Shown in pieces: positions 31,570 through 57,014 of a stretch of DNA of 64,000 bases. How positions within the stretch are numbered: position 1 is the first letter of the stretch; every line of letters begins with the position of its first letter. The position numbers and the translations under genes were made by a program. Source of the stretch: Candidatus Micrarchaeota archaeon (lineage in GTDB: Archaea; Micrarchaeota; Micrarchaeia; Micrarchaeales; CABMGC01); the NCBI GenBank assembly GCA_021803945.1, contig JAJZKW010000004.1:310-64309 (forward strand). The letters run 5' to 3'. The notes below the pieces were generated by a model. That model ran no database searches. It was not told the origin of the DNA and worked only from the letters and a program-made list of their open reading frames with translations.

Positions 31570-31571
31570 AT

Positions 31572-32265: not shown

Positions 32266-32319
32266 GGTGCCTGTTTTGCGCCGCATCACCTGGTGCGGCG
32301 CCTTCTCTTTTTAAGTCCC

Positions 32320-33474: not shown

Positions 33475-33509
33475 GGATATAAATGATGCGAGAACAATTA
33501 ATAAATTGG

Positions 33510-34346: not shown

Positions 34347-34397
34347 GGGTGTTTATTGCCTGCGCATGTTTAAAAGTCTAATTGGTATAATAGCTGT

Positions 34398-35039: not shown

Positions 35040-35153
35040 GGTATGGCGCTGGTCTTCGGCGGCCAGTCCCGGTTTCTCCTGCTGCGTTTTCATAGTTGCC
35101 AGGTATACATCACCTTTTAAAATTTGCTGTTGCAAATTATTACTGGGATTGAA

Positions 35154-35825: not shown

Positions 35826-35835
35826 CTTCCGCTCT

Positions 35836-35863
35836 CTTTTTTCCGGGCCGGAAGAGGATTCCG
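35836..35863 (+). terminator. Oligo-T run plus perfect hairpin downstream of the paralog pair
   Basis: TTTTTT at 35836-35841, 11 nt after the stop, then CCGGAA-GAGGA-TTCCGG at 35847-35863. Confidence 0.35.
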
Positions 35864-36007
35864 GTCCGGCGATTTTCCTGCGCTTGGGCACCATGCATGC
35901 TGCATGTGCGACGTGGCGGAAGCAGCATAAGCGCATTTTGGATTGGCGCTTTCAGGATGTTATATATTTGTTCCTGGATTATCTTTTCTTGAGGAATAGT
36001 AGATTTT

Positions 36008-37060: not shown

Positions 37061-37821
37061 TCGTGCCTGGCTGAAGCTTCCTCCTCTGCGAAGTTCATCT
37101 CTGCTGGGACTATGAGAGAGATTGTCTTGCCTTCAAGCTCTCCCTCGTGGGAGAGGACCTCTGAGAATTTCGTGCGGAATACCCTCTGGCCTTCCCTTCC
37201 TATGTCCGCAAGCACGATCACCGTGTCCTCTTCCTTTATTGTCGTGCCGTCCTGCTTGCCCTGGGCAGCGGCAATTATCTTGATAGCCTCTGCTATGTCC
37301 ATCGGGCGCGCTCCGTCCTTGTCTATATCCAGGAGTAGCAGTGTGTGCTCGCCATTCTTCCTGTTCTTGGCTACGGTGTCTATGAATGATGTCGGCTTGT
37401 AGTGTTCGCTCCAGAACGGGACCGTGGCGCTTGGACCGAACTTGTATATGTCTAACCCGCTTTCCCCTATAGCTGCGGAGAAGATTGACGAAGAATGGAA
37501 CACCGCGGTCTTTATCCCCTGCCTCTTTGCCTCGTCTAGGATTATGTGGTGTGTGGTGGCTATCAGCGGATCTCCTATGACGAGTATTGCCATTGTCCTG
37601 CTGGCTGCGGCCCTGACTGTCTCCTTCAGGCCCTCCTCGAATGCGCTCCTAGGCTCTTTTTTAGGCTCCTTGCCTGTCTCTTTTATAATGAATTCGATGC
37701 TCTCCTTCCCAATCGTCGACGTGTAGCCGTCCATGACCACTATGTCGGCAGACCTGATGAACTCTATTGATTTTACTGAGACGTCCCTTTCCCCGAGGCC
37801 GATTCCTATTAGGGCTATCAT
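37057..37821 (-). CDS. dph5: Diphthine synthase
   Basis: MIALIGIGLGERDVSVKSIEFIRSADIVVMDGYTS...VIGDPLIATTH is the tetrapyrrole-methylase fold typical of Dph5. Confidence 0.85.
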   Translation of the reverse strand: MIALIGIGLGERDVSVKSIEFIRSADIVVMDGYTSTIGKESIEFIIKETGKEPKKEPRSAFEEGLKETVRAAASRTMAILVIGDPLIATTHHIILDEAKRQGIKTAVFHSSSIFSAAIGESGLDIYKFGPSATVPFWSEHYKPTSFIDTVAKNRKNGEHTLLLLDIDKDGARPMDIAEAIKIIAAAQGKQDGTTIKEEDTVIVLADIGREGQRVFRTKFSEVLSHEGELEGKTISLIVPAEMNFAEEEASARHD

Positions 37822-37835
37822 GCAGATCCGCAGCG

Positions 37836-38786
37836 CTAGTCCTTTATCCCGTCAGGGGTTATCTTGATGACGGCCTCTCCCTCAGGCATGTTCGGCGAAT
37901 CCACAAGCCTGACTATCCTCTTGTCCTCCTTGCTCTTCCTCATGTAAAGCCTCGTCGTCGCTGCGTGGGCCACTATGTTGCCGCCTACCGGCGTTGTTGG
38001 GTCACCGAAGAGTATTGCGGGGTTGTCCATTACCTGGTTTGTTATGTATATGGCGAGGTCATATGTGTCTGCAAGCTTCTGGAGCTTGTGTATGTGGCTG
38101 TTCAGCTTCTGCTGTCTCTCCCCGAGAGCGCCACGCCCAAGGAACTCGGACCTGAACAGAGCCATGAGCGAGTCCACAACCACGAGCTTTATGTTGTTCT
38201 CCTTGATCAGCTTGTCGGCCCTCTCTACTGCGAGGATCTGCTGGTCTGTTGTGGTTGCCCTTACGACGAAGATGTTATCCAGCACTTCCTTCGGGTCGGC
38301 TTCCGAGGCCTTGGCTATCTGCTCAATCCTGTCAGGCCTGAATGTGCCTTCTGTGTCTATGAATAGGACCTTGCCTGAAAGACCGCCCTTCTCAAGCGGC
38401 CTCTGCACGTTCACTGAGAGCTGGAAGCCAAGCTGCGTCTTTCCTGCCGCGAATTTGCCGTAGGCCTCTGTTATCGCATTCGCCTCAACGCCTCCGCCGA
38501 GCATCTCGTCAAGGCTCTTTGCGCCTGTCTTTATCACACCGAGCGACTTCCTTTTGTCGTATACCTGGTTACCGGTCGAATATGAAAGGGTAGTAGCCTG
38601 CTTTGCTGCGTCTACGGCCTGCTTTGCTGCGTCTAGCTTCATCCCGGTAAGCTCTGCGAGCTCGTGGGGCGATGCAGTGGCTATCTTTTCCACATCGTCG
38701 TAGCCCAGCTGCTTGAGCTTTGCCGCTATTGTAGGCCCAACTCCTGGAAGATCTTCGAGCTCCTTGATGCCTTTTTCCTTTGCCAT
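37836..38786 (-). CDS. radA: DNA repair and recombination protein RadA
   Basis: N-terminal HhH LEDLPGVGPTIAAKLKQLGY, Walker A AYGKFAAGKTQ and Walker B KLVVVDSLMALFR. Confidence 0.95.
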   Translation of the reverse strand: MAKEKGIKELEDLPGVGPTIAAKLKQLGYDDVEKIATASPHELAELTGMKLDAAKQAVDAAKQATTLSYSTGNQVYDKRKSLGVIKTGAKSLDEMLGGGVEANAITEAYGKFAAGKTQLGFQLSVNVQRPLEKGGLSGKVLFIDTEGTFRPDRIEQIAKASEADPKEVLDNIFVVRATTTDQQILAVERADKLIKENNIKLVVVDSLMALFRSEFLGRGALGERQQKLNSHIHKLQKLADTYDLAIYITNQVMDNPAILFGDPTTPVGGNIVAHAATTRLYMRKSKEDKRIVRLVDSPNMPEGEAVIKITPDGIKD

Positions 38787-39035
38787 GTTATTACCGCTGT
38801 TTCAATAAGAAGAATAGCTCTTGATATTACTCAGGGAAAGATTATAAACGTCTTGTTCCTGCCCTGAAATCCGCATTTTTGGGCTCGCTGCAACGGCTCG
38901 GGGGAGGCTTGGTGCAAAACAGGAAGAGGCCAGCAACACACATAAATGCGTGTGCTGGCAAGGCGACCAGTTATACTCTTCCATGATAGAGAACTCGTAA
39001 GGATTATATTAAATTCTGCATTTAAAAACCTTCCT

Positions 39036-39048
39036 GAATAGTGGAACT
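39036..39048. repeat. Second exact copy of the 13-mer GAATAGTGGAACT
   Basis: Identical to 45020-45032 on the same strand. It lies in the 334-nt radA/DUF92 divergent spacer. A TTCCA-N6-TGGAA dyad follows at 39060-39075. Confidence 0.6.
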
Positions 39049-39120
39049 ATCTGCCCAAATTCCATCGGTTTGGAACGGTTTGGCCTGCTTTTTAATAATT
39101 TGCCTTTGTAAATAACCATC

Positions 39121-39795
39121 ATGGCTTCTGTGTTTACATTGGATCTGAGCGGGACCCTGCTTGCTGTGCTGTTTGGCCTTATTACCTTCTACTTCGGCCT
39201 TCAGCTATGGTGGTTCTTCATGGCCGTCCTTATAGACTTCCTAGTGCTGTCGGCCATAGCCACACAGGCAAAGGAGGAGGAAAAGAGGAAGATTAGGGGG
39301 TATGAAAAGGTCAGGAGCTGGAAAAATGTCGTTGCGAACGGCACTGTTCCTGTAGCTCTTGTCGTAATATACTTTGTTTCGGTCAGCTATGCCGGGATTT
39401 CGACGGCTGGCAGCCAGATAATAATATACGCCTTTGTTGCCAGCCTGGCTGCTGTAACTGCGGACAAGTTCGCCAGTGAATTCGGGGTTCTATACAACAA
39501 CCCGAAGGATATCGTTACGCAGACCAGGGTTAGGAGAGGGACGTCCGGAGGAATCACCTGGATGGGTACGCTGATGGGGCTTATAGGGGCTGTGCTCATA
39601 GGGCTTACGGCCCTGTCCATAGGTGCATCGCTGATGGTCTTTGATGTGATCGTAATTGCCGGTGTTGTCGGAAACGCCGTAGACTCTGTCCTAGGTCATT
39701 TTGAGGAGAGAGGGATAGGCAACAAGTACACCTCGAACCTCGTTTGTGCGGTGGCTGGAGCTGCTTTGTGCGCTTTGGTGCTCCTGGCAATCTAG
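39121..39795 (+). CDS. DUF92/TMEM19-family integral membrane protein
   Basis: Polytopic, with AAVTADKFASEFGVL and VGNAVDSVLG motifs as in DUF92 (TIGR00297-like). Confidence 0.55.
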   Translation: MASVFTLDLSGTLLAVLFGLITFYFGLQLWWFFMAVLIDFLVLSAIATQAKEEEKRKIRGYEKVRSWKNVVANGTVPVALVVIYFVSVSYAGISTAGSQIIIYAFVASLAAVTADKFASEFGVLYNNPKDIVTQTRVRRGTSGGITWMGTLMGLIGAVLIGLTALSIGASLMVFDVIVIAGVVGNAVDSVLGHFEERGIGNKYTSNLVCAVAGAALCALVLLAI

Positions 39796-40713
39796 TCAGT
39801 CAACAGGAGAGAGCCAGCCCCTGTATTTCTTGTCCTCTCCTCTAACGATTTTTGAATATCTTTCTCCCAGCGCCTTTGCTATCTGCCCTGGTTTTCCGTT
39901 CCCTACAGCCCTGGAGTCAACTGATATGATGGGAGTTATCTCTGCTGCTGTTCCGCAGAAGAAGGCCTCGTCGCTGACATAGAGTTCCTCCCTCCTTATC
40001 TCCCTCTCTGCCACTTCAAGGCCCATGTCTCCTGCTATCTTTATGATCGTGTCCCTTGTTATGCCGACCAGTATGTCAGACTGTTTGGGAGGGGTTATCA
40101 GGATGCCGTCCTGGACTATGAAGATGTTCTCTCCCGGCCCTTCGGCGACCTTCCCGAAGCTTGACATGAGGATGGCTTCGTCGTATCCGGAGTCGTTTGC
40201 CTCGATCGAGGCAATTATCGAATTCAGGTAGTTGCCGCTTGCCTTCGCGCCGACAGGGAGCGTCGAGGAGTTTATCCTCAGCCACGACGACACCTTGCAC
40301 CTTATCCCCTTGCTCACGCCTGCATGCCCGAACAGGTTTCCGAATGGGATTGCCGCTATGGCTACGCTTGTCGACTTTCCCTTGGTGTTGAAGCCTATGC
40401 CTATGTCCTTGTAGAACATGAACGGCCTTATGTAGGCTTCTTCCAGCCCGTTCTTCTTTATCGTTGATATTATCCCGTCCCTGAGCTCTTCGGCGCTGAA
40501 TTTCGCCGGCATCCTGTATATCTTCGCGCTGTTGAGGAACCGCCTTATGTGGTCCCCGAGCCTGAATATGGCAGGCCCTGCCGCAGTCTTGTAGCACCTT
40601 ATGCCTTCGAACATCCCGCTTCCGTACTGGAGGGAATGCGTGAGCACGTGCACTTTGGCATCCTCGAATTTCACCATCTTCCCGTCGAGCCATATGAATT
40701 GCTGTTTCTGCAT
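39796..40713 (-). CDS. ilvE: Branched-chain amino acid aminotransferase
   Basis: Class IV fold motifs: SLQYGSGMFEGIRCY, KASGNYLNS, EGPGENIFIV and LVGITRD. Confidence 0.85.
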   Translation of the reverse strand: MQKQQFIWLDGKMVKFEDAKVHVLTHSLQYGSGMFEGIRCYKTAAGPAIFRLGDHIRRFLNSAKIYRMPAKFSAEELRDGIISTIKKNGLEEAYIRPFMFYKDIGIGFNTKGKSTSVAIAAIPFGNLFGHAGVSKGIRCKVSSWLRINSSTLPVGAKASGNYLNSIIASIEANDSGYDEAILMSSFGKVAEGPGENIFIVQDGILITPPKQSDILVGITRDTIIKIAGDMGLEVAEREIRREELYVSDEAFFCGTAAEITPIISVDSRAVGNGKPGQIAKALGERYSKIVRGEDKKYRGWLSPVD

Positions 40714-40771
40714 CCTGTCATCCGGAGATATTTGGCATGAAAACTATATAACCATAGCTGGGGAGTGTGGA

Positions 40772-40844
40772 TGCGCCAGCCGGGATTTGAACCCGGGCTA
40801 TGGCCTTGGGAAGGCCAAGTCCTACCAGGCTAGACTACTGGCGC
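40772..40844 (-). tRNA. tRNA-Gly (anticodon CCC)
   Basis: Reverse complement GCGCCAGTAGTCTAGCCTGGTAGGACTTGGCCTTCCCAAGGCCATAGCCCGGGTTCAAATCCCGGCTGGCGCA, with anticodon stem TGGCC/GGCCA and loop TTCCCAA. Confidence 0.9.
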
Positions 40845-40897
40845 ACGGTTTTATTCGGGCAGTTCAACTTAATATATTTTCCTTGAGCTAGACTATC

Positions 40898-42640
40898 ATG
40901 AGACTTGGCAGCGTTGCGGCGTTCCTTGTCCTGTTTGGCGTGATACATGCCTACCAGACTCTCGGTGCTGGATATTTCTTCTATTACAACGTGAGCGTTG
41001 CGAACGGGTCTTCAATATTCGTCGGGCTGGACACCAACACCAGTGTGAGCCTGGTTGTGATCAAGAGCTCTGAATTCTGGGCCTGGGAGCATTATTCGAA
41101 TGTTGCGGAGATCTATAATTCTAGCGTAGGCTCTGGAATCTACAGGATTGGCGTTCCGCCGGGCAGATATACAGTATTGGTATCGGCAACCTCGGCTGCC
41201 AGGCTTTCTGGCGGAGTGATAGCTGCAGCCGACAATGAGGCCTCGGTGGTTAGTTTCAGGGGAAGCCATGCATACAACCTCACGCTTGACAACAACAGCG
41301 CCGTGAACGTGACAGTGCTGACTGATAGCAATTTCCAGGCATACCCGATGCGGCTGCGGCTGCTTTATTACAACAGCCTGATAAATTCTGACTCGAACCT
41401 GGAATTCCTAAATTTTACCCTGAGCAGGGGGAGTTACCAGATAATATTGGACTCTCCGGTGCAGGTAGAGGCGCTTGTCTTGACCAGGTCAGAGCCAAGG
41501 CTAGTAAACCCCATAGCCAGCCTGTCAGGGCCTGTGTCTGTAGGTGTGGCAAGCTATGGAATTTATAATAGGTCCGGCACGCTTATACCTTACCAGATTT
41601 CGGCTGCCGGTGTTGTCGGGACTGCAAACATAACCCAGATAAGCGCAGAGGGTCTGAACGCTTCGGGCAACAACTCTGCTGCGGGTGCGAGCCTGCAGCT
41701 AAACGCTATGCTCAATACAGAGTATGGAAGCCGGAAGGCGGTCTTTTGGATCCAGGATGTGGTGGATTTCAATACTGATCCGGGCAACAGGACCGTGTAT
41801 TTTGTAAGCAACATATGGAACAATACCTTGCCTTCTGCGGGCCTGTCCGGCTCTACGCTGAAGGGATCCGGAGGCATAAACACATGCTATTCGTGCAGCA
41901 GCAAGAGTTTTTATGCGTATTCGTATCCATACGGCCAGCTCGGATATGCTTTGCCTTTCAACGTGAAGCTCGTCATGCTCGAGAACCAGACCCAGAACGG
42001 CACTGTGATCTCTTTTGGGTACCAGGTACTGCAGAACGGCACCGGAGGCATGCAGCCGGTTGTGTTTTTTGACAAAGTCCTGTTGCCTGGCAGCCATAAT
42101 TCCACGTTTTTGGTGACTCCATACTATACAACACCTCCTGGGACAAACAACAGCGGGAACTTTTATGACACCGAGCTTGTGTTCGGGGGAGAGTCTGGGG
42201 GCGCGGAGTCGGTCTTCAGCAGGCTTAGCGCCGTCCTGTGGATCTACTACTACAATTCAAGCAGGGAGCTAACTCCCTTCCCGTCTTCTTGGACCTTCGG
42301 TCTGGATACAAAGGAATCTGCAGGGAACCTCAGGGTACTGCCGTATGGGAACGGGGAGGGGGCCTTTGTCACAACCGGGGCGCTCAACCACAAGGAACAG
42401 ATACGTGTGGGGTCGGCCATAGACACTTACACAGCGTTCGTATCCAATGCGTCAAAGTACATTGCTCCGGTAGCCAACCGGAGCGTAGGGGGCAATAGCA
42501 GCTCTGCGGGACAGCAGCTGTCAGCCCCATCCGTGCCAATAAATATTGGCTTGTTTTTATCGTCGATTAGACCATATGCCTTGGATTTGGTTGTGCTGGC
42601 TGCCGCCTTGGCTGCCCTCTTGGCCCTCAGGAGAAGGTAA
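40898..42640 (+). CDS. Thermopsin-like (peptidase A5) secreted acid protease with a C-terminal membrane anchor, heavily sequon-rich
   Basis: Sec signal MRLGSVAAFLVLFGVIHA. PVSVGVASYGIY, ASLQLNAML and VFWIQDVVDF resemble thermopsin family blocks. There are more than 25 NxS/T sequons and a C-terminal TM ALDLVVLAAALAALLALRRR. Confidence 0.6.
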   Translation: MRLGSVAAFLVLFGVIHAYQTLGAGYFFYYNVSVANGSSIFVGLDTNTSVSLVVIKSSEFWAWEHYSNVAEIYNSSVGSGIYRIGVPPGRYTVLVSATSAARLSGGVIAAADNEASVVSFRGSHAYNLTLDNNSAVNVTVLTDSNFQAYPMRLRLLYYNSLINSDSNLEFLNFTLSRGSYQIILDSPVQVEALVLTRSEPRLVNPIASLSGPVSVGVASYGIYNRSGTLIPYQISAAGVVGTANITQISAEGLNASGNNSAAGASLQLNAMLNTEYGSRKAVFWIQDVVDFNTDPGNRTVYFVSNIWNNTLPSAGLSGSTLKGSGGINTCYSCSSKSFYAYSYPYGQLGYALPFNVKLVMLENQTQNGTVISFGYQVLQNGTGGMQPVVFFDKVLLPGSHNSTFLVTPYYTTPPGTNNSGNFYDTELVFGGESGGAESVFSRLSAVLWIYYYNSSRELTPFPSSWTFGLDTKESAGNLRVLPYGNGEGAFVTTGALNHKEQIRVGSAIDTYTAFVSNASKYIAPVANRSVGGNSSSAGQQLSAPSVPINIGLFLSSIRPYALDLVVLAAALAALLALRRR

Positions 42641-43399
42641 TTATCTTATATATGGGAAATTTTCCTTGCGTGTGGGGCCTTCCTGCACGCTCTTCTGTGC
42701 CTCTTCGAGCTCTTTTATCATCCTGTCTGTTTCGTTCTTTATCTTATCTATGTTCTCAAGATTTATCTTCACTCCTAGTATGCTCTTTATGACTTCCAGG
42801 ACCGCCCTTGCCGCGTTTGCGTCTATCTCCAGCACGCTTGTCTCGCCCATTATGCATGCTCCGTGGATCCTGTTCTTCTTCGCGAATGACACAATGAGGC
42901 CTGCGGAACCCCATATCGCCCCGTTTGCCAGGCCGAACAGGATGCCTTTCTTCGAGAGCGCGTTTTTTGTATATTTGTCTGTTGCGACTCCGAATACTCT
43001 TGGGTTCTGTATGTAGTGGCTGCCTGCGCTGTACCCGCCTATTGTGTATATTGTCTTTCCTCCAAGATGCTTGAAGAACCGCACTATCTCTTCGTTAACT
43101 TCGTATTGCCCCTCTGGTGTTCCGGCCTGTGTGTCGCCCAACAGTATTATCAGCGTGTTTGCCTTCAGTTCTTTGTAGTAGAATCTGTTGCTTATCAGGC
43201 GTGTATATCCGCTTTTGAGCATGAGCGTCTGGTGTATGAAGTGTGGTGAATAAAGCGATGCGAATCTCTTTGCGCCGAGCTCGTTCTTCAAGTATTCCCC
43301 GACAAGGCTGCCCACGCTACCTATGCCTGGAAGGCCAACTATCATTATCGGGTCCTTGAATTTTATTTTCCTTTTATAATATATTTTTGTGTTTTTCAT
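42641..43399 (-). CDS. PAC2-family proteasome assembly chaperone-like protein
   Basis: DPIMIVGLPGIGSVGSLVGEYL...SPHF... is the typical archaeal PAC2 (COG1938) N-terminus. Its position downstream of aIF2alpha matches the conserved gene order. Confidence 0.65.
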   Translation of the reverse strand: MKNTKIYYKRKIKFKDPIMIVGLPGIGSVGSLVGEYLKNELGAKRFASLYSPHFIHQTLMLKSGYTRLISNRFYYKELKANTLIILLGDTQAGTPEGQYEVNEEIVRFFKHLGGKTIYTIGGYSAGSHYIQNPRVFGVATDKYTKNALSKKGILFGLANGAIWGSAGLIVSFAKKNRIHGACIMGETSVLEIDANAARAVLEVIKSILGVKINLENIDKIKNETDRMIKELEEAQKSVQEGPTRKENFPYIR

Positions 43400-44157
43400 A
43401 CCTGCACTTTTATGCTCTTCATATTGAATTCTATGGTTTTGTACTTTTCTAGTATGTCCTGGGCATGTTTTATCTTGTCTTCGGCTTCGGGATAGCTTGA
43501 GTCTGTTGCAAGGAACCTGTATTTCGGCGCGCCCATGTAAAGCACTTCCACTCCCTCCTTCTCTATGCTGCTGAGTGCTTCTTTAATCAGGTTTATCCCG
43601 GCTTTTGTGTCTGTCGTCGTCAGGTCAACGTTGTACGAAACGGTGTATGTTTTGGGTTTTATGGTCTTCGCGACGAGCTCGTATAGTGCGTCTTTGAAGC
43701 TTTTTTCCTTTATTCCGGCCAGGGGGTCCTTTCCATCTGATATGCTGTTTATGATTTCGTTGTATGTTGTTGCAAGTCTTGATAATTCTTCTACTATGGC
43801 CTGTTTCTTGTCTTCGTTTTTGGAGGAGGCCAGGGCTTTGTTGAACATGCCCTCTGCGCGCTTCTCGAGGCCGAACTCGTTGATCTTGTCCTTTTTAGCC
43901 TTGCTTGTGACCTTCTTTAAAGATATGTCTACGGATCTCTTCTCCTTGTCTGTAAATATTACCTTGGCTACGTCCTGCTGGCCCTCTTTGATGAATTCGT
44001 GTATGTTCTTTATCCAGCCGGACGACACTTCCGATATCGGCAGATATGAGTCTATGTTGTATTCTGTTATCCTGCAGTACGCGCCGTGCGGCATTATCTT
44101 GCTTATCTTTATGATTACGAATTCCCCAACGTCAGGAAGCTCTTTTGTCTTTATCAA
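43396..44157 (-). CDS. eif2a: Translation initiation factor aIF2 alpha subunit
   Basis: N-terminal S1 domain LPDVGEFVIIKISKIMPHGAYCRITEYN..SYLPISEVSSGWIKNI, followed by a helical domain and an alpha-beta domain. Confidence 0.85.
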   Translation of the reverse strand: MIKTKELPDVGEFVIIKISKIMPHGAYCRITEYNIDSYLPISEVSSGWIKNIHEFIKEGQQDVAKVIFTDKEKRSVDISLKKVTSKAKKDKINEFGLEKRAEGMFNKALASSKNEDKKQAIVEELSRLATTYNEIINSISDGKDPLAGIKEKSFKDALYELVAKTIKPKTYTVSYNVDLTTTDTKAGINLIKEALSSIEKEGVEVLYMGAPKYRFLATDSSYPEAEDKIKHAQDILEKYKTIEFNMKSIKVQV

Positions 44158-44161
44158 ACAC

Positions 44162-44452
44162 TTACCTTCCTATCTCTATTTTCTTTTTTGTGCGCATGCC
44201 CAGGACTTTCTCACTTATCTTCTTGCATTCTTGGCATTCTATCATCACTTTCTGCTTCTTTCCGAGTTTTTTGGGGTGGATCTTTGGTTCTACGCTGCCT
44301 ACATATCCTTTTATCGCCCTGTTGTGTCTTCTTGTTCCAAGGCTTTGGCCTCTTTGCGCTTTTTTGTTGTACGCCCTGGCGATGTGCTTTGTGTGCTTGT
44401 TGCAGTACCTGCAGAAGTTCATGTTCTCTCTTGGTATTTTCATATATATCAA
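44162..44452 (-). CDS. rpl44e: 50S ribosomal protein L44e
   Basis: MKIPRENMNFCRYCNKHTKH...GYVGSVEPKIHPKKLGKKQKVMIECQECKK is a Zn-ribbon L44e. The true start may be Met4 (44443). Confidence 0.85.
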   Translation of the reverse strand: MIYMKIPRENMNFCRYCNKHTKHIARAYNKKAQRGQSLGTRRHNRAIKGYVGSVEPKIHPKKLGKKQKVMIECQECKKISEKVLGMRTKKKIEIGR

Positions 44453-44453
44453 C

Positions 44454-44924
44454 TCAGTCTGTTGTTTCCCCTATCTTGTTTTCAACAATAAATTTTGTGT
44501 CTGTGTGGTCGTAGACGTAAACTATCTCGTTTTGCTCGTATGGGCCCACCTTGCTTCCCGATGGCGTTACTATCTGTGGTATGGTTTTGGTTATCTTCAC
44601 TTTTGTTGGCTTGCTTCCTTCGTTGTTGTTTATTATATTTTTTATCTGTATATATAAATCTTCTTCTTCTGATGGGACTGGCCTGGGGAGGTCTTTGTTG
44701 TATGCCAGGTAGACCAGTATCTTCTGGGTCCTCTTTTCTTTTATTGAAGATATTGTCTTGCTTATGTTTTTGTATTCGTCTGTGTCCTTTTCGTATGATC
44801 CGAGCTTTTCGTTTGTTTTCGAATAAAAGTCCTTTGGGAGAGTTATTACTTCTCCGCTTTTCCTCTCGTTCCTAAGCAATGTTAACAGCCCGTTTATGGT
44901 TATTTCAACGTCCATCCGTGACAC
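44454..44924 (-). CDS. GINS subunit (Gins51-like)
   Basis: The A-domain-like N-terminus LLTLLRNERKSGEVITLPKDFYSK...KRTQKILVYLA and the small B-domain-like C-terminus VKITKTIPQIVTPSGSKVGPYEQNEIVYV...FIVENKIGE resemble archaeal Gins51. The start is GTG 44924 or ATG 44915. Confidence 0.5.
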   Translation of the reverse strand: MSRMDVEITINGLLTLLRNERKSGEVITLPKDFYSKTNEKLGSYEKDTDEYKNISKTISSIKEKRTQKILVYLAYNKDLPRPVPSEEEDLYIQIKNIINNNEGSKPTKVKITKTIPQIVTPSGSKVGPYEQNEIVYVYDHTDTKFIVENKIGETTD

Positions 44925-44930
44925 CAGGGT

Positions 44931-44944
44931 ACAGTTCCAGTATT
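44931..44944. repeat. Left arm of 14-nt inverted repeat ACAGTTCCAGTATT
   Basis: Its reverse complement AATACTGGAACTGT matches 45021-45034 at 13 of 14 positions. It lies 7-16 nt upstream of the GINS start. Confidence 0.7.
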
Positions 44945-45020
44945 ATTTGACTCTTTCAGACTGCATATTGGATAATATGATTAAATATATACTATACTAT
45001 AATATAACAAGAGATGCACG
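44945..45020. other. AT-rich spacer between the inverted-repeat arms (candidate duplex-unwinding element)
   Basis: The core 44965-45010 (atattggataatatgattaaatatatactatactataatataacaa) has 6 G/C in 46 nt by hand count. It contains tandem ATACT. Confidence 0.4.
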
Positions 45021-45034
45021 AATAGTGGAACTGT
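45020..45034. repeat. Right arm of inverted repeat, GAATAGTGGAACTGT
   Basis: 13 of 14 complementary to 44931-44944. The 13-mer GAATAGTGGAACT is repeated exactly at 39036-39048. It is followed by GGGG. Confidence 0.7.
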
Positions 45035-45050
45035 GGGGCCTATGGTAGAA

Positions 45051-45125
45051 TAGCGGGAGGTGGATTTGAACCACCGATCTCCGGGTTATGAGCCCGGCGG
45101 GCACTCCAGGCTACCCTACCCCGCT
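45051..45125 (-). tRNA. Initiator tRNA-Met (anticodon CAU)
   Basis: Reverse complement AGCGGGGTAGGGTAGCCTGGAGTGCCCGCCGGGCTCATAACCCGGAGATCGGTGGTTCAAATCCACCTCCCGCTA. The A1:U72 pair and three G:C pairs closing the anticodon stem are archaeal initiator hallmarks. Confidence 0.9.
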
Positions 45126-45280
45126 TCATTACTAAATAAAGAAGCAACAAAATATAAAGGACACACAAACTATTATATAAGAAAATATACAAAATACTGC
45201 TGGTGTACAGCTGTGTTGCCTTTGCCAGGGTCTGTCAGAAGCAGCAGCCATTCCTCGGCAACGCCAGCTTTCAGACGACA

Positions 45281-45600
45281 CACAAGACACACAAAACAAC
45301 CGATGCACAAAACAACAACCCCTCACACAAATATTGCTAAAAATTGTTAGATTTATATATGAGAAGCGCATTAACACCATTACAGACAACCAGACACAAA
45401 CAGTGATAGTAATGCCAAAACACACACAAAAAAATAGAACAAAGGCCACTAAACTCAAAAACAACCCCAAACAGCACAAAAACAACACAAAACACATAAA
45501 AAACCCAAACCACAAAACGAAACATAACACAACAACAAAACAGCAAAAAAAGCAGCCAAAGCCAATACAGAGGGACAAAGAAGAGGCATTGGCGCGCAGC
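45281..45600 (+). repeat. Low-complexity A+C-rich tract (locally above 90 % A+C)
   Basis: Hand count for 45481-45540: 57 of 60 nt are A or C (1 G, 2 T). It spans the tfe promoter/leader and the first ~60 codons from ATG 45412. Confidence 0.8.
45351..45360 (+). promoter_or_regulatory. TATA box ATTTATATAT for tfe
   Basis: It lies about 55 nt upstream of the first ATG (45412) and downstream of the TTG used by the ORF track. Confidence 0.45.
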
Positions 45601-46116
45601 AAACAATTGGAAGAGTCAAGACAGATAACAGAAAGGCTTCAAAACAAAACATTCACACAGCACATAGACACGAAAGTTGGGGCCAACACGTCAGACATAC
45701 TTAAGGTCCTTGCCAAGGCACAAAAAACAGACGAGGACATAGCAACGCAACTCAACATGAAGGTAAACGACGTGAGGAGGGCCCTCAACATAATGAATGG
45801 CTACAGCATAGTCAAATACGACGTGAACAAGGACAGCAAGGGCTGGCTTATGTTCAAATGGAAGATTAACAGCGAGAAGCTGGAAGACTACATAGCCAAC
45901 ACAGAGAAAGAGCTCAGCGCCGAGGCCGAACCGGAACTCCCAAGCAACTGCAACGACTTCTTCATATGCAAGAAATGCTACACCAACCAGAAGATAGTGC
46001 TGCCTTTTGAGACAGCATTCGATTCGGGATTCAACTGCGACAACTGCGGGAAGCCCTACGCCATACTCAGCCGCAACGAAGCAATAGATCTTTTCAAGAC
46101 ATCACAGGAGCAGTAA
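45412..46116 (+). CDS. tfe: Transcription factor E alpha (TFE) with a ~65-aa K/N/T/Q/H/P-rich N-terminal extension
   Basis: Winged helix SDILKVLAKAQKTDEDIATQLNMKVNDVRRALNIMNGYSIVKY...WLMFKWKIN and Zn ribbon CKKC...CDNC. The track start (TTG 45334) lies upstream of the TATA ATTTATATAT (45351-45360), so the first ATG 45412 is used. A later TTG start (45589 or 45607) cannot be excluded. Confidence 0.65.
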   Translation: MPKHTQKNRTKATKLKNNPKQHKNNTKHIKNPNHKTKHNTTTKQQKKQPKPIQRDKEEALARSKQLEESRQITERLQNKTFTQHIDTKVGANTSDILKVLAKAQKTDEDIATQLNMKVNDVRRALNIMNGYSIVKYDVNKDSKGWLMFKWKINSEKLEDYIANTEKELSAEAEPELPSNCNDFFICKKCYTNQKIVLPFETAFDSGFNCDNCGKPYAILSRNEAIDLFKTSQEQ

Positions 46117-46119
46117 TTG

Positions 46120-46446
46120 CTACAATCCGGCCTTTCTGGACAACTCAACAAGCTTCTTTAACGACCCAGAAGTCCTCAACGTGAAGAATCCCACAGGAGA
46201 GCCGTCCAAGTCCTTTATAAAAGAAAAGGCAAGGGCAATGCCCCCTTCATAACCCCTATTCACACGCACTATGAAAGCGCGCTCCCCGGCACGGCACACG
46301 ACCTTAGGGTGGCCCCTTACATATCCAATAGCGCCAATCTCAGCGCAGAGGAGCGAAATTATCTTGTTTGAAACAACCTTATCCCCAACATCGAGCGGAG
46401 CGGTGGCCTCCACCAGCACGTATCTGTTCTTCGGCCTAGCTATCAT
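46120..46446 (-). CDS. RNase P protein component 2 (Pop5)
   Basis: KNRYVLVEATAP...IGYVRGHPKVVCRAGERAFIVRVNRGYEGGIALAFSFIKDLDG...TLRTSGSLKKL follows the Pop5 pattern. The start is set at Met42, which overlaps the Rpp30 stop by 11 nt. Confidence 0.65.
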   Translation of the reverse strand: MIARPKNRYVLVEATAPLDVGDKVVSNKIISLLCAEIGAIGYVRGHPKVVCRAGERAFIVRVNRGYEGGIALAFSFIKDLDGSPVGFFTLRTSGSLKKLVELSRKAGL

Positions 46447-46930
46447 AAAACATCCCCCCAAACAACCCCGGCACATCGTCAAACAGAAGCCGGGAAACCT
46501 CAGACATCTGCATCGCAGAGAGGAGCATATGTTCTGAATCCGCAAAGGAGACCAGCGACACCCTAGCACCCATCTTGCGCGAAGCTAATATTATCTTGCG
46601 CATCCTGCCCACTCTAACCCCCCTTTCCTTAACCGTCGTTTTCATAAGCTGGCCAACCACCAAAAAAACAGTCTTCCCCATTTCGGCAGCTTTCTCCACA
46701 ACCTTTTTGGCAAGCTCATTATCCTCAAAAACAATGCCCGCAACGCAACTATCCCTAACCGCCCCGATAAGGGTCCCAGGGTCCTTGCTAATAACGATCA
46801 AAGGCAAGTCCGTCTTCTCCGTGCGCCCGGAAACGACGAGGTCTTTCCCGACACAATAAATTTTTTTGTAACCGAGCCTCTTGCAAAGGTCTTCACCAAC
46901 ACCAAAACGCGCAATGTCAAAATACCCCAT
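46436..46930 (-). CDS. RNase P protein component 3 (Rpp30), shortened form
   Basis: The C-terminal half LAKKVVEKAAEMGKTVFLVVGQLM...RVGRMRKIILASRKMGARVSLVSFADSEHMLLS matches the Rpp30 TIM-barrel C-terminal strands. The prefoldin-Rpp30-Pop5 order is conserved in archaea. Confidence 0.55.
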   Translation of the reverse strand: MGYFDIARFGVGEDLCKRLGYKKIYCVGKDLVVSGRTEKTDLPLIVISKDPGTLIGAVRDSCVAGIVFEDNELAKKVVEKAAEMGKTVFLVVGQLMKTTVKERGVRVGRMRKIILASRKMGARVSLVSFADSEHMLLSAMQMSEVSRLLFDDVPGLFGGMFYDS

Positions 46931-46964
46931 TTTGGACCTCTCCTTTAGCAGAAACTACCAATCA

Positions 46965-47318
46965 CTACGCTCCTTGGGAAGCTTTATAGATTTCGGTTAT
47001 CTTTTCACTAAGCTGCTTCTCCTTTAACTTCAGTTCATCATACTGTTTCGTTATGGACTTTATCCTTGTGTCGGACAGCTCGCCCCTGTCTTTCAGGTCG
47101 GCCAGAGCCTTCTCCTTCGTAGTTTCAACTACAATACCTCCAACGCTCATGTAGACCTTGCCAGTCGAGCCAGTCACTTCCTCAGAGGCCCTCTCAAATT
47201 CGGCTTTCTGGACCTTTAGCTGCTCAAGCTGTATCGCGTACATCCTCAACTGTTCCTGTACCATCTGATAATCCCTGACCATCTTCTCCACTTCCTGCTC
47301 GTCCGGCTGCTGCACCAT
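46965..47318 (-). CDS. pfdB: Prefoldin beta subunit
   Basis: Two heptad coiled coils flank the beta hairpins ...GKVYMSVGGIVVETTKEKALADL... Confidence 0.75.
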   Translation of the reverse strand: MVQQPDEQEVEKMVRDYQMVQEQLRMYAIQLEQLKVQKAEFERASEEVTGSTGKVYMSVGGIVVETTKEKALADLKDRGELSDTRIKSITKQYDELKLKEKQLSEKITEIYKASQGA

Positions 47319-47374
47319 ACAATCACTTATATAAATTTAGGGTAATATGTAGTTATAACATTAATAATATAGCC

Positions 47375-47385
47375 TTATATTTATA
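47375..47385 (+). promoter_or_regulatory. TATA box TTATATTTATA for the 47405/47876 gene pair
   Basis: Centre lies 25 nt upstream of the TTG start at 47405. Confidence 0.4.
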
Positions 47386-47404
47386 GCAGCAGGCAGGTGG
47401 GTTT

Positions 47405-47875
47405 TTGGATCTTAACGAAGCGTCCTTGATAGAGAACGAGGTGACCATCAGAAACCTCAGGCTCACGGACGAAGTCCTTGAGACAAGGAGGGCTGCAATA
47501 CGGTGGCTTGCGCTCTCCCTGGGTATAATAAATCCCGGAGAGTCCAGGCAAAGCTCTTTGGCTGTCCTTGACGCCCTTGTGAATTTCCAATTCATAAAAA
47601 ACATAGACCCATCAGTCAAGGACATCTCCGAATACATAAACGCAAACTGGGAGAAGATAAACGAGAAGACGCTCAGATATCACCTACTGAAAATGAAGAA
47701 TATGGGTTACATCGACAATTCAGCAGGCAAGTTCTTCTTCAGTCCGCCGAACACCGGAGACAGGTATGACCCGCACAACTGGGCAAGGCACGCATTCGAA
47801 TCCAATTACCTTAATATAGCAAACAAAATAGGGCAGGTAATAAAAGACATCAAGACCAAATCAAGAGGCGTATAG
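47405..47875 (+). CDS. Winged-helix protein (156 aa), probably leaderless with a TTG start
   Basis: KDISEYINANWEKINEKTLRYHLLKMKNMGYIDNSAGKFFF is a wHTH-like pattern. TATA TTATATTTATA (47375-47385) lies 25 nt upstream. The stop directly abuts the next gene's ATG. Confidence 0.45.
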   Translation: MDLNEASLIENEVTIRNLRLTDEVLETRRAAIRWLALSLGIINPGESRQSSLAVLDALVNFQFIKNIDPSVKDISEYINANWEKINEKTLRYHLLKMKNMGYIDNSAGKFFFSPPNTGDRYDPHNWARHAFESNYLNIANKIGQVIKDIKTKSRGV

Positions 47876-49462
47876 ATGAAACAAATAAAAGAGAGATACC
47901 TATGGGCCGCATTTTTCATAGCGGTTATTGTCATCTCGCTATACTTCAGACTGTATTATCAGGCGCCAATCTCGCTGAATATAAGCATGCCTTCCTACAA
48001 CACAACCAAGGTATACCCCTACCAGCAAGTAAGCATACCCATAACAATATCTAATACTGGGTCATCCTCATTCTCTAACCTGACCTTCGGTCTGTATATA
48101 AACGGCAACGTAAGCACGGTGTACAAGGCGTCCATACCAGGATCGAAACAAGCCTTAATGCACTTCAATTTCACGCCAAAATCTGCAGGCACATACAAAA
48201 TCTCCTTCATAGCCGACCCAAGCAAGCTGTACAACATAATAAACCGCCGCACGGCCAGGGCAAACACCACAATCACGGTTTCTCCGCAGCAGGCGGCAGC
48301 TCCGTATGCCAACTTCAACAAAGGGGCTCTTGGCGTAGACACGTTCGAGCTAAGTCCCCTTGGCTTCGCAGTCTCAACTTTCCTGGTAAACAATTTCAGC
48401 ACCACAAGATTCTCGCTCACAACATCAACAAATGTAGACAACTTCATCTATCCCGCCGTGGACGTATACATGCCGTATATTAAAAAAATTGCCGTAGCGC
48501 ATGCATATTACACAAACTACAGCCTTGCCTCGATATGGATAAGCGGATACATAAACCCCGACTCATTGGACCAAGTGGCAATAGGTAAAGGGATCAACGT
48601 AACGCTTTCGGGAAACGTCTCCTTGATAAAACTTGGAAACAGCACTACTGCGTGCAGCTGGTATTCCGGAGGCTGGACAAAGGTCCTCATATCGATATTG
48701 GGGAACAGCTGCCTGTCCTATCTGAATAAGACCTCCGCATTTAACTATTCGGAGCTGTATAATACGCTAAACGACAAAAACACGTCAATACTAAACTACT
48801 CAGGGTATATCTCAAACCTTACCTATTCTGGAGACATACTCTACAAGAACAAGACCTTTTTGTACCAAAGCCTGATGCATGGTGGGAAGGGGGTGAACTT
48901 CAGCAACACCTGCTACGGAAACATACTCAACATATCAAACACCTCCTATTGCAGCACAAACCTGATAAGCGGGAACTTCATGCTTTCCAAAGTAACCAAG
49001 CTCATAGGTAACTACAACGTAAGCGTATGGGCCCTTACAAATACAAGCAACATAGAACAAGGCAGCAGCTACGCCCTTGGACTGGCCGAAGCCTACAACC
49101 TCACAGGGAACAAGACTGTCTTTGTCTCAGCGTTCGTGAACAAATGTTATCTCGAAGCAAGCCTCCCATGCAGCAGCCCGGCATTCAACTACAACAACAT
49201 CACAATATCTTTCTCTAACGATTTTAACGAACCTGTAACAATAAACACGCTTGGCTGCTTCCTAGCAGGAAATTACACTCCAAGCGAGCTGGGACTTACT
49301 GTGGCTCCAGGGAAAAGCGCAAGCATAAGCGCCACATGCTACAACAACGGGGCTACACTTTCAGGGATAGTCCCTCTCGGCCTCGAATTCAGCCTGGTCC
49401 TGAACTACACTGTAGGAGGCAAAACCGCAACCTCGCAGGGATACGCATACATAGCAAAGTGA
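47876..49462 (+). CDS. Large sequon-rich surface protein: N-terminal anchor, CARDB-like domain, C-terminal pilin-type globular domain
   Basis: N-terminal TM YLWAAFFIAVIVISLYF. ISNTGSSSFSNLTFGLYINGN...FNFTPKSAGTYKISFIADP is CARDB-like. The C-terminal ~115 aa start CYLEASLPC and end in a beta-rich segment like 18854 and 22486. There are more than 30 NxS/T sequons. Confidence 0.5.
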   Translation: MKQIKERYLWAAFFIAVIVISLYFRLYYQAPISLNISMPSYNTTKVYPYQQVSIPITISNTGSSSFSNLTFGLYINGNVSTVYKASIPGSKQALMHFNFTPKSAGTYKISFIADPSKLYNIINRRTARANTTITVSPQQAAAPYANFNKGALGVDTFELSPLGFAVSTFLVNNFSTTRFSLTTSTNVDNFIYPAVDVYMPYIKKIAVAHAYYTNYSLASIWISGYINPDSLDQVAIGKGINVTLSGNVSLIKLGNSTTACSWYSGGWTKVLISILGNSCLSYLNKTSAFNYSELYNTLNDKNTSILNYSGYISNLTYSGDILYKNKTFLYQSLMHGGKGVNFSNTCYGNILNISNTSYCSTNLISGNFMLSKVTKLIGNYNVSVWALTNTSNIEQGSSYALGLAEAYNLTGNKTVFVSAFVNKCYLEASLPCSSPAFNYNNITISFSNDFNEPVTINTLGCFLAGNYTPSELGLTVAPGKSASISATCYNNGATLSGIVPLGLEFSLVLNYTVGGKTATSQGYAYIAK

Positions 49463-49475
49463 CTCCCTGATCCTT

Positions 49476-52235
49476 ATGGAAGAAAGCCCATACAAACTAT
49501 TCCTTACAAAATTCAACGATTTTACAGATGTCCAAAAGCTCAGCATAGGTCCAATAGAGCAGGGGCACAACTGCCTAATAATCGCACCTACAGGCAGCGG
49601 TAAGACAGAAGCGGCAATACTCCCAACACTTAACAAAATATCTAAAGCCAAAAACAAGCAGGGCATATACTCCCTTTATGTAACTCCGACAAGGGCGCTG
49701 AATAGGGACCTTATAAAAAGGCTTGAATGGATTGGGTCGAAACTTGGCATAAGCATAGCGGTCAGGCATGGGGATACAACCCAGTCGGAACGCAGAAAGC
49801 AGAGACTATCCCCGCCGCAACTTCTAATAACCACACCAGAGACTATACAGAACCTCCTTCTATCTAAAGCGCTTCGGAAGAGCCTTGAAAACCTCAAGGC
49901 AGTCATTGTGGACGAGGTGCATGAGTTATATTATAACAAGCGAGGCGCGCAGCTGTCAATAGCCCTAGAAAGGTTGGAAGAGATAGCAAAAGGATACCAG
50001 CGGATAGGAATCAGCGCAACCATAGGTGACGTAGATGAAGCCTCAAATTTCCTTTTCAACGGGAAGCCGCACAAAAACATAGCATCAACAATACAAAAAC
50101 AGGTCGAGATAACCGTAGAGATGCCACAGATACCAAAACACGATGACAAAGAGTTCAGGCTGTCCTTCGGTCTGGATCTTCAGGCCTACGCAAGGATAAC
50201 GAGAGTCACAGAGCTGATAGCAGGCGCGAAGGCAGCAATAATATTTGCAAACACAAGGCAGGCAGTAGAGTCGATAGGGAGCAAGCTGATAATGTTAGAG
50301 AAAACGATAGACTTCGGGAAAATTGGCATTCACCACAGTTCTATAGACAAAGACGAAAGGATCAAAACAGAGAATGCATTCAAGAGCGGGGATATAAAAG
50401 CGATAATAGCCACAAGCTCCCTTGAGCTGGGCATAGATGTAGGCGAGATAGACCTTGTCGTCCAGTACGGGTCACCCAAACAGGTTACAAGGCTAATACA
50501 AAGGGTGGGGAGGGGAGGACACAGGCAGATGGCCAAGTCCATTGGAACGATCATAACACATAACGAGCTCGACTGCCTAGAATCGATTGCAATAGCCGAA
50601 GCTGCCATCTCATTAAGGCTGGAAAAACACAAAGTGGAGAGGTGCGCGCTCGATGTCCTCGCAAACCAGATATGTGCTATGGCAATGGAGTACGGGAAGA
50701 TAGGCAAGAGTCAGGCGTTCAGGATAATTACAAACTCATTCGTATACAAAGACCTCACAGAAGCGGATTTCGCAAGGACATGCTGCCTATTGTCAGACCT
50801 GCGCCTGATAAGGCAAGACAGCAGCAGCATATCCTTCAGTCCGAAGGGAAGAAACTACTTCATAAACGCAATAAGTGTAATACCAGACACAACGAGATTC
50901 CTAGTCAAGGAAGTTGTTGAGAACAAGATAATATCAACCCTAGACGAAGAGTTTGTATATAATTACATAGATCAGGGATCGGTCTTCATCACAAAAGGGC
51001 TCCCATGGAAAGTAGTGAGCATAGAAGAAAACACAATACTTGTCGAGTCCAGCGATGATATGTCTGCCGCAGTCCCGGATTGGGATGGGGAAGACATACC
51101 AGTTTCAAAGGATATAGCGTCGAAGGTGTGGTGGTACATGCAGAAAGGGGTGAAGGAGGAGAACGCAAAGGTAGAGCAGCACGCACTCTCAGAAATATCA
51201 AAATTTATACAAGAAAACTCCAGATACTTCGTCCCGAAAGAGGATACGATAACAATAGAGGAGCTTGACAACTGTGCAATTGCATACATGCCCACCGGAA
51301 AGCTCGCAAACGAGTTCATATCAAGGATTGTCTCAATCATGGCATCATCACACTCCGGTGCGAAGGTGAACGCCAGGGCCACCCCATATGCCATAATTTT
51401 GGACTATAGCAGCGTGATAAGGAGACCAGACACGGCAGCCATATTCAAGGAGCTAAAAAACATCCGCATAGATGACAAGTCTTTCATATTAGACACCGAC
51501 CTGTTCAGGTACAAATTCGTGCAGACAGCGAAGCTATTCGGAGTCGTTGAAAAAAAGACGACCGTGACAAAGAGCATGGCAAACAGGCTTATCAGCTTCT
51601 ACGAAGCATCCCCGATATTCGACGAAACAATGCGCGACCTTTACAAGAACTATTTCGACATTGGAGTCACCAGAAAACTCCTGGAGGGCATGAAGTCAGG
51701 CTCTGTCAGGATTGAGCTTGCCGAAAAGACTCCGTCCCCGATGTCAAAGGCGATATTGCAATCAGTTTTCAAGTACGGGGAGCTCCTCTCAACCCCCGAA
51801 AGGAGCACAGTCATAGACAAAATGTTCGACAAATTCGATGGAAGGAGCATAAAAATGATATGTACTTTCTGCGGCCACGTGTTCAATGAAAAGATAGACA
51901 TGAACAGCAGCGACAAGCTCCTGTGTACCTCGTGCAAAAGCCCGATGATTGTGATATACAGCGACAAATACGAAGAATTAATAAAAAAGAGAGCATTGCA
52001 AAAGCCACTCAAGGAGAAAGACAACGCACTATACAAGGAGATGATGAAGGAAGCCAGCATGGTAGACGCATATGGCTTCAGGGCGCTTGTGTCCCTCTCA
52101 GTCTACGGTATAGGGATAGAGACCGCTTCCAGGCTCCTCAGGTACATAAGGAAGGACTATAAAATGTTCTTCGTCGATGTCATAGATGCGCAGAGGAACT
52201 TCATAAAAAATAGGAAATTCTGGAAGATCGACTAG
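49476..52235 (+). CDS. lhr: Lhr-type superfamily-2 helicase (DEAD/DEAH box plus Lhr-associated domains, C-terminal Zn ribbon)
   Basis: Motif I APTGSGKTEAA, motif II VDEVHE, motif III SAT and motif VI QRVGRGGH. It has a long C-terminal extension with CTFCGH...CTSC. Confidence 0.8.
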   Translation: MEESPYKLFLTKFNDFTDVQKLSIGPIEQGHNCLIIAPTGSGKTEAAILPTLNKISKAKNKQGIYSLYVTPTRALNRDLIKRLEWIGSKLGISIAVRHGDTTQSERRKQRLSPPQLLITTPETIQNLLLSKALRKSLENLKAVIVDEVHELYYNKRGAQLSIALERLEEIAKGYQRIGISATIGDVDEASNFLFNGKPHKNIASTIQKQVEITVEMPQIPKHDDKEFRLSFGLDLQAYARITRVTELIAGAKAAIIFANTRQAVESIGSKLIMLEKTIDFGKIGIHHSSIDKDERIKTENAFKSGDIKAIIATSSLELGIDVGEIDLVVQYGSPKQVTRLIQRVGRGGHRQMAKSIGTIITHNELDCLESIAIAEAAISLRLEKHKVERCALDVLANQICAMAMEYGKIGKSQAFRIITNSFVYKDLTEADFARTCCLLSDLRLIRQDSSSISFSPKGRNYFINAISVIPDTTRFLVKEVVENKIISTLDEEFVYNYIDQGSVFITKGLPWKVVSIEENTILVESSDDMSAAVPDWDGEDIPVSKDIASKVWWYMQKGVKEENAKVEQHALSEISKFIQENSRYFVPKEDTITIEELDNCAIAYMPTGKLANEFISRIVSIMASSHSGAKVNARATPYAIILDYSSVIRRPDTAAIFKELKNIRIDDKSFILDTDLFRYKFVQTAKLFGVVEKKTTVTKSMANRLISFYEASPIFDETMRDLYKNYFDIGVTRKLLEGMKSGSVRIELAEKTPSPMSKAILQSVFKYGELLSTPERSTVIDKMFDKFDGRSIKMICTFCGHVFNEKIDMNSSDKLLCTSCKSPMIVIYSDKYEELIKKRALQKPLKEKDNALYKEMMKEASMVDAYGFRALVSLSVYGIGIETASRLLRYIRKDYKMFFVDVIDAQRNFIKNRKFWKID

Positions 52236-56909: not shown

Positions 56910-57014
56910 GTACATCCCACAGTAGCTTCCAGGACTGCCCCTAATCCTGTACACAATACCAACAGAGACATTTTATTAATCCTTTTCGCCAACTAGTAAT
57001 GTATTGGTCTCTCA

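Follow-up and report, generated by a model that had tools for sequence, protein, structure and literature searches.

A conserved two-box module beside the GINS gene as a probable, orc1-unlinked replication origin in Micrarchaeota

In a contig from a Candidatus Micrarchaeota archaeon, the base composition of the plus strand flips abruptly in the gap between a GINS gene and the initiator tRNA gene. Does this point mark an origin of replication, a terminus, a transcription signal that merely lies near a skew landmark, or a fault of assembly? We addressed this question in a stretch of 64,000 nucleotides, hereafter the window, and at the corresponding loci of related genomes. Homologues of the window's GINS protein carry Micrarchaeota labels. 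Micrarchaeota are DPANN archaea, tiny symbionts that are uncultivated or grow only in co-culture.

The strand-composition flip and the module in the window

The cumulative keto skew of the plus strand (G+T minus A+C) rises near-monotonically from 0 to +3254, reaches its maximum at 45068 and drops beyond it, to +1206 at 64000. The cumulative TA skew has its maximum at 44956. Third-codon-position skew was computed with ORFs as gene proxies and all values were referred to the plus strand. Left of the site, the third-position keto skew was positive in nearly all ORFs on either gene strand, with values of 0.30-0.40 in the last three; right of the site, it was negative in every ORF (-0.09 to -0.43), again on either strand. 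The original prediction, a plus strand that is G+T-rich on the left and A+C-rich on the right regardless of gene orientation and at synonymous sites too, was thus confirmed by both measures, and the hand counts given with it were exact (T35 G11 C8 A6 at 44581-44640; 57/60 A+C at 45481-45540, where the bases are A40 C17 T2 G1). The features on which the following text draws are listed below.

1..44944, no strand: left skew domain, plus strand G+T-rich (cumulative and third-position skew)
44454..44915, minus strand: GINS subunit gene, one of the two conserved flanks (Pfam and homologues)
44926..44948, plus strand: Box B, on the GINS side, AGGGTACAGTTCCAGTATTATTT, ORB-like and inward-reading (PWM score 25.8 bits; inverted-repeat arm)
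44945..45020, no strand: A+T-rich spacer between the box cores (76 nt, 74 % A+T)
44981..45016, minus strand: asymmetric inner element beside Box A, consisting of CGTG, about 8 nt and a TATA-like TTATATTATA(G)TATA (alignment of 70 oriented modules)
45017..45039, minus strand: Box A, on the tRNA side, GCCCCACAGTTCCACTATTCGTG (PWM score 31.6 bits; 0 mismatches to the consensus 15-mer)
45051..45125, minus strand: initiator tRNA-Met(CAT) gene, the other conserved flank (tRNA search and sequence features)
45126..45600, no strand: A+C-rich low-complexity tract, containing the most skewed 300 bp of the window (57/60 A+C at 45481-45540)
45126..64000, no strand: right skew domain, plus strand A+C-rich (cumulative and third-position skew)

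The bias had also been described as strongest next to the flip. This holds within the window, since the two 300-bp stretches with the largest keto skew in all 64 kb flank the site directly (+0.38 at 44562 and -0.61 at 45272), but as a real gradient it has only partial support: when species were pooled, the excess of skew near the site extended over no more than 1-2 kb, and this on the GINS-operon side, and in the closest clade part of the near-flip skew stems from an A/C-rich tract. In the window, this tract (45126-45600) reaches 95 % A+C and contains degenerate CACAAAACA-like repeats; a comparable tract was found only in the closest relatives (L009, L011 and L012). It is probably non-coding. 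The 5' third of the TFE ORF overlaps it, and since the TFE Pfam domain begins only at residue 114, the start of this ORF is probably over-called.

The gap holds a 14-nt inverted repeat, ACAGTTCCAGTATT at 44931-44944 and AATAGTGGAACTGT at 45021-45034, whose arms are 13/14 complementary and 76 nt apart, just as first described. Each arm lies within a longer box. The outer G/C-tract of Box B is GGGT and adjoins the GINS start, and Box A reads ...AATAGTGGAACTGTGGGGC on the plus strand, with its G-string pointing outward. The spacer is proposed to be the duplex-unwinding element and the helicase-loading zone. Its core had been put at about 87 % A+T, a value that fits the best 40-bp stretch (87.5 %); the spacer as a whole is 74 % A+T. 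This 40-bp maximum is also the maximum of the window, tied with five other places, so the spacer is not uniquely A+T-rich.

Both flanks were borne out as a GINS gene and an initiator tRNA, by homology, by the tRNA search and by the initiator features in the sequence, A1:U72 and GGG/CCC in the anticodon stem. GINS is the first gene of a GINS-L44e-eIF2alpha-PAC2 row that is transcribed away from the module. The intergenic length of 126 nt given originally matches a GTG start at 44924; with the likely GINS start, ATG at 44915, it becomes 135 nt. An Rfam scan of the window returned tRNAs only. A box-like 15-mer, GATAGTTCCACTATT, also occurs at 39037-39051 between radA and the DUF92 gene; it has two mismatches, scores below the PWM threshold and may be due to chance.

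The original prediction had allowed that the junction might be an assembly or inversion breakpoint. In keeping with an assembly chimera or a recent inversion, several short contigs of other assemblies terminate in or beside the locus: contigs of five of them (L002, L005-L008) end in or near 44600-46140 of the window, in the GINS gene, in the tRNA or at the TFE end. The skewed low-complexity sequence at the locus may be hard to assemble. Against it, three independent assemblies span the junction with 99.8-100 % identity across 43900-46200, and hence the flip is not an assembly artefact. The same junction and skew step recur in about 60 other species, and the architecture in about 70. A chimera or breakpoint as the cause of the flip is thus excluded for practical purposes. 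The PAC2 protein of the window also has identical copies in MAG GCA_021811465.1 and in several ENA and Logan assemblies.

A two-box module conserved across Micrarchaeota

An alignment of GINS proteins led to 80 species-representative Micrarchaeota loci, in which the 240 nt upstream of GINS were read. Almost all of them share one architecture, although the identity of their GINS proteins falls to 31 %. The usual order is the initiator tRNA, Box 1 (CCCCACAnTTCCACTATT(CGTG)), an A+T-rich stretch with TTATATAATATA, Box 2 (AATAGTGGAAnTG(T)GGGGT or ...ACCCT) and the GINS start. The two boxes are about 20 bp long and inverted, with their C/G-tracts outward, and their consensus is A-CCCC-ACA-n-TTCCACTATT. 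The pair was present in 74 of the 76 loci that have enough upstream sequence, with a TTCC core that is conserved at 94-100 %.

The inner spacer has a median length of 75 bp (range 72-91 in 67 species; 72-76 bp in 44 of the 67). It is 76 % A+T, compared with 53 % for the surrounding loci, and exceeds its own locus in 67/67 species. The distance from box to GINS start varies from 2 to 116 nt, and that from box to tRNA varies too. In 56 of the 67 species, a tRNA-iMet signature is found no more than 260 nt from Box 1, and the boxes are retained without an adjacent tRNA in some, for example L014, L074 and L079. In six loci (L021, L023, L031, L037, L054 and L077), the initiator tRNA upstream of GINS has an apparent intron right after the anticodon, and ARAGORN misses or miscalls such genes; a long tRNA-intron endonuclease, of 580 aa, is encoded in the window at 32320-34062.

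A PWM was built from 148 boxes and used to scan 1.52 Mb at a threshold of 14 bits. Hits at or above this threshold fell almost exclusively at the GINS-adjacent module, and none lay near orc1. A scan of metagenome contigs found only about 13 loci that score high on both boxes, all of them GINS-adjacent where the flank is present; copies beside cdc6 or on plasmids did not turn up. The box is thus no motif of promoters in general, and the 14-mer did not turn out to be common near promoters genome-wide, an outcome that would have weakened the original prediction. A loose pattern for box pairs gave at least 120 matches in viral contigs; we estimate that chance alone would yield this rate with so degenerate a pattern and a collection that large, and the matches were dropped.

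The module is asymmetric. Exactly one box per module bears the CG extension, that is, CGTG followed after about 8 nt by a TATA-like run, while the other box continues into A/T; positions 19-20 are anticorrelated between the two boxes (z = -4.8 and -3.1). In 42 species, and likewise in the window, the asymmetric side is turned toward the tRNA, and in 23 toward GINS, which means that the module was flipped relative to its neighbours and stayed intact. The polarity of the skew is unchanged between the two orientations. This inversion, seen in about a third of species (23 versus 42; loci L009-L088), may be due to recombination between the module's own inverted boxes. The outer tract (positions 1-4 of the 27-mer) is CCCC, or GGGT in about a third of boxes, so that either strand can carry the G·C run, which can switch strands as a block; the type of tract can differ between the two boxes of one species. 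A requirement for a hairpin or cruciform was considered and rejected, because variation in one box of a species is largely independent of that in the other.

The skew follows the module in the relatives. For about 70 species together, third-position keto skew was computed in 1-kb bins, separately for each gene strand. On the tRNA side it was positive in every bin except the sparsely sampled minus-strand bin that adjoins the module, and on the GINS side it was negative in every bin. To within the 1-kb resolution, the step coincides with the box centre, and it does so in the close clade as well as in the remaining species. In individual loci, the skew was higher on the left than on the right in 60/61, and 57/61 were positive on the left and negative on the right. 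The TA component of this replication-associated third-position skew is about +/-0.12 and the GC component about +/-0.06. The site is a conserved replication landmark and not a local quirk. In the complete 853-kb chromosome OY969902.1, which was sampled at two places, the skew is weak, and near zero at the orc1 locus.

The initiator gene and known origins

As originally stated, the 64-kb window has no orc1/cdc6 gene (tblastn), and a Pfam search of about 55 window ORFs found no integrase/XerA, MCM or Orc1. A Micrarchaeota Orc1/Cdc6 was found in L043, and the family is 67-83 % identical across the phylum. Its closest relatives are Sulfolobus Cdc6-1/Orc1-1 (2QBY_A, E = 5.6e-66), which is an ORB binder, and Aeropyrum ORC1; the phylum has a single conserved Orc1, of the Orc1-1 type. 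On shared contigs, orc1 lies 9.7 (L041), 24, 28 and 38 kb from the module. It lies 6 kb from the GINS site in L043, which is without boxes, and 147 kb from the module in OY969902.1, where the module is at 566.8 kb. The skew around orc1 has the same sign on both sides, as a single flip at the GINS site predicts, and no flip at orc1 was seen in the loci examined. Hence neither an origin nor a terminus adjoins orc1.

Other replication genes are close by: GINS is adjacent to the module, RFC is adjacent in L050, gyrase and RadA are in the window, and PolD is near orc1. In three species, a gene for a ParA/MinD-like ATPase lies directly upstream of orc1 and is co-oriented with it (L092:9185-9988, L093:9195-9986 and L094:9200-10000), which suggests a parA-orc1 operon there. 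In other species (L089, L092), orc1 is followed by a gene of about 170 aa and Rpp14, with a block of beta-CASP, a gene of about 230 aa, ATP-grasp and CoA-ligase nearby. The window has Rpp14 with a 164-aa gene, and the same beta-CASP block, at 46120-46930 and 58863-62867; here prefoldin, Lhr and gyrase occupy the place of orc1-parA, and orc1 seems to have moved out of this neighbourhood.

Next, the module was compared with known systems. The ORB/mini-ORB consensus is GTTCCAGTGGAAAC-AAA----GGGGG, in which TTCC and GAA are invariant. The Micrarchaeota boxes share with ORB-type origins AGTGGAA, one TTCC/GGAA core (94-100 % conserved) and a G-tract. The original prediction had pointed to such a resemblance, which agrees with the published consensus in part: AGTGGAA, the TTCC/GAA core and the G-string are shared, the second half of the dyad is absent, and the G-tract lies closer to the core. 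Like the oriC1-type origins of archaea (Sulfolobus oriC1, Pyrococcus oriC and haloarchaeal oriC1), the module has two inverted boxes with outer G-strings around an A+T-rich region, an Orc1-1-type initiator, a skew switch at the site and replication genes nearby. In the minimal oriC1 of Haloarcula hispanica (oriC1m), neither ORB and neither G-string is dispensable, and it is the AAA+ domain that reads the G-string; the geometry of that origin, C-tract, box, A+T-rich region, box and G-tract, equals that of the module.

The module also departs from oriC1-type origins in several respects. It is not adjacent to orc1/cdc6, such adjacency being usual in archaeal origins, though not universal. It has only two boxes and no mini-ORB cluster; its box is a half dyad, AATAGTGGAA as compared with TTCCAGTGGAA; its G-tract is about 4 nt from the core rather than about 10 nt, and sometimes on the opposite strand. 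It adds the asymmetric CGTG and TATA-like element, and it is embedded between tRNA-iMet and GINS. A search of the literature found no described Micrarchaeota or DPANN origin of this kind. The module is best placed with the ORB-type origins of archaea, as a variant that is unlinked to orc1 and has two boxes at a fixed spacing, a divergent half-dyad box and a reversed, A/T-dominated skew.

Origin, terminus or transcription signal

One reading is that the boxes are transcription signals only, an operator/promoter pair of the GINS operon or a terminator of the tRNA, and that the landmark behind the skew lies nearby. Box B stops 2-60 nt short of the GINS start, with an A-rich run ahead of it; the conserved TTATATAATATA element resembles an archaeal TATA box; and Box A comes after the 3' end of the tRNA. 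However, the internal spacing is kept (72-76 bp) while the distances to the GINS start and the tRNA vary, and the box pairs persist in the three species named above that have no adjacent tRNA. The TATA-bearing side can face either neighbour, with the tRNA and GINS counts given above, and so the module cannot be one fixed promoter. Moreover, no other promoter in 1.5 Mb has the box, and in both clades the position of the skew step agrees with that of the module to within 1 kb. We regard a transcription signal as very unlikely, and purely transcriptional or artefactual explanations taken together as scarcely more credible.

The polarity of the skew is the main difficulty for an origin. By the convention of bacteria and Pyrococcus, converging G/T-rich strands are the sign of a terminus, and the strand running 5' to 3' toward the site is G- and T-rich. 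The original prediction had correctly cautioned that an origin here requires C/A-rich leading strands. This polarity counts against an origin and agrees with a fixed terminus, at which canonical G/T-rich leading strands converge and the boxes would be a protein-bound polar fork trap, by analogy with bacterial Tus/Ter or RTP/IR sites, or a recombination site. The flip is sharp, as it is at bacterial dif and Ter sites, and the inverted boxes resemble the terminus of Bacillus, where inverted protein-binding boxes lie a few tens of bp apart; these features, a sharp switch, converging G/T-rich strands and inverted protein-binding repeats, are common to bacterial dif/XerCD, Tus-Ter and RTP traps and to archaeal XerA/dif. 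The genes for tRNA-Lys and tRNA-iMet beside the module are aimed at it in most species. In Forterrea (Diapherotrites), a related DPANN lineage, a skew-predicted origin has been reported next to cdc6, which hints at canonical polarity in that lineage. The orientation of these two tRNA genes and the polarity in Forterrea speak for a terminus and against an origin, as against an origin do the lack of an adjacent orc1/cdc6, found at nearly all characterised archaeal origins, and the half mini-ORB dyad with its shorter and sometimes strand-switched G-tract.

Other evidence is contrary to a terminus. We know of no fork trap or fork-trap protein in archaea, and no candidate contrahelicase protein was identified for the boxes; their geometry and the bacterial-convention polarity fit a fork trap, while the context, namely the position of orc1 and the orientation of genes, does not. 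Conservation of a site's flanks across a whole phylum, as seen here, is typical of origins and, to our knowledge, not of termini, those of bacteria included. A terminus would place orc1 only 6-38 kb from it in 5/6 genomes and, in the 853-kb chromosome, far from antipodal, with no opposite skew flip at orc1. The ORB-like boxes stand in the geometry of a minimal oriC1. A terminus would also set the ribosomal-protein rows and 57 % of the coding sequence head-on to replication. At distances above 3 kb, transcription runs away from the site for 57 % of coding bases, and for more than 50 % in 47/62 loci, a mild co-orientation; in the window, all ribosomal-protein genes (the RpoD-L18e-L13-S9-S2 row and L44e) and 4/5 tRNAs (three left, one right) point away. 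The orientation of tRNA genes was tried as a proxy for fork direction in 60 loci and was uninformative, as tRNA-Lys and tRNA-iMet point toward the module and tRNA-Gly away. As for the dif site suggested as an alternative in the original prediction, none was found: the consensus WTKDSMTATAATVDDYMTTATATSHMAA had no match with up to 3 mismatches in the window, although this consensus is that of Thermococcales and a divergent dif could escape it. A dif site is 28 bp long (11-6-11 bp), with two 11-bp inverted arms and a 6-bp spacer, whereas the boxes of the window are 76 nt apart and the usual spacer of the module is 75 bp. Termination in Sulfolobus occurs by stochastic fork collision, and if this held here too, the skew change at a terminus should be gradual. 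A fixed terminus therefore appears unlikely, and a phylum-wide, site-specific one with the two inverted ORB-like boxes as a polar fork trap rather improbable.

The polarity objection to an origin is not fatal, because reversed polarity is documented at the experimentally mapped origins of four haloarchaea (Norais et al. 2007). Their chromosomes have C-rich leading strands and a cumulative G-C peak at the origin (Norais et al. 2007), the polarity that is required here. The Micrarchaeota differ from them in that the T/A component dominates the skew, and in being small-genome acidophilic DPANN symbionts with apparently one flip per contig and not multiple origins.

We consider it likely that the module is a conserved, orc1-unlinked chromosomal oriC, in this archaeon and across the phylum. 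The reading first put forward, an origin in which inverted repeats of ORB type enclose an unwinding element where the skew is extreme, remained the best supported after these tests, backed by the phylum-wide module and by a skew step that coincides with it in 60/61 species. A sharp, site-specific skew switch in the window and about 60 other species, flanks conserved at phylum depth, an ORB-like box, an oriC1m-like geometry, an Orc1-1-type initiator, a loosely linked orc1, the near-uniqueness of the box in 1.52 Mb, the replication genes close by and the mild bias of transcription away from the site all argue for it. The inversion of the module relative to its flanks at constant skew polarity accords with a self-contained element that acts in both directions, but not with a fixed promoter.

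Herein, we describe how such an origin might work. We infer that one molecule of the single Orc1/Cdc6 of the lineage, which is of the Orc1-1 type, would bind each box, head-to-head with the other. Its winged helix would lie on the TTCCAC core beside the spacer and its AAA+ domain on the outer G/C-tract. Facing inward, the two initiators would then load MCM onto the spacer of about 75 bp, which would melt; the fixed length of the spacer suggests a steric constraint, and about 75 bp is roughly the expected footprint of a double MCM hexamer. The CGTG and TATA-like element could be the site of first melting or a site for another factor. Forks would leave the module in both directions, and through a replication-associated mutation bias the leading strands would accumulate C, and especially A, over G and T.

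The 110-bp signature marks the same replication landmark in about 70 species, and can thus serve as an anchor for orienting and checking metagenome-assembled genomes and for estimating growth rates from read depth. The module is also a minimal substrate, with two sites at a fixed spacing of about 75 bp, for studying Orc1-directed helicase loading. If it is an origin, the Micrarchaeota are a second archaeal lineage with reversed replication skew, here A/T-dominated, which bears on the cause of strand asymmetry, and origins can part from orc1 and yet stay tied to GINS and the initiator tRNA. If it is a terminus, it would be the first defined termination site in archaea, and orc1 would lie near the terminus.

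Two further observations concern the left part of the window. Within 35 kb of the site, at 9756-13668 and 28200-31569, lies a cluster of deoxynucleotide-metabolism genes, encoding DeoC, SHMT, thymidine kinase, an NT5C nucleotidase, thymidylate kinase, dCTP deaminase and a 579-aa ThyX with two Thy1 stretches. At 5281-8043, a 920-aa ORF with no Pfam match lies within strongly purine-rich sequence, with a GC skew of up to 0.30 and an AT skew of up to 0.22.
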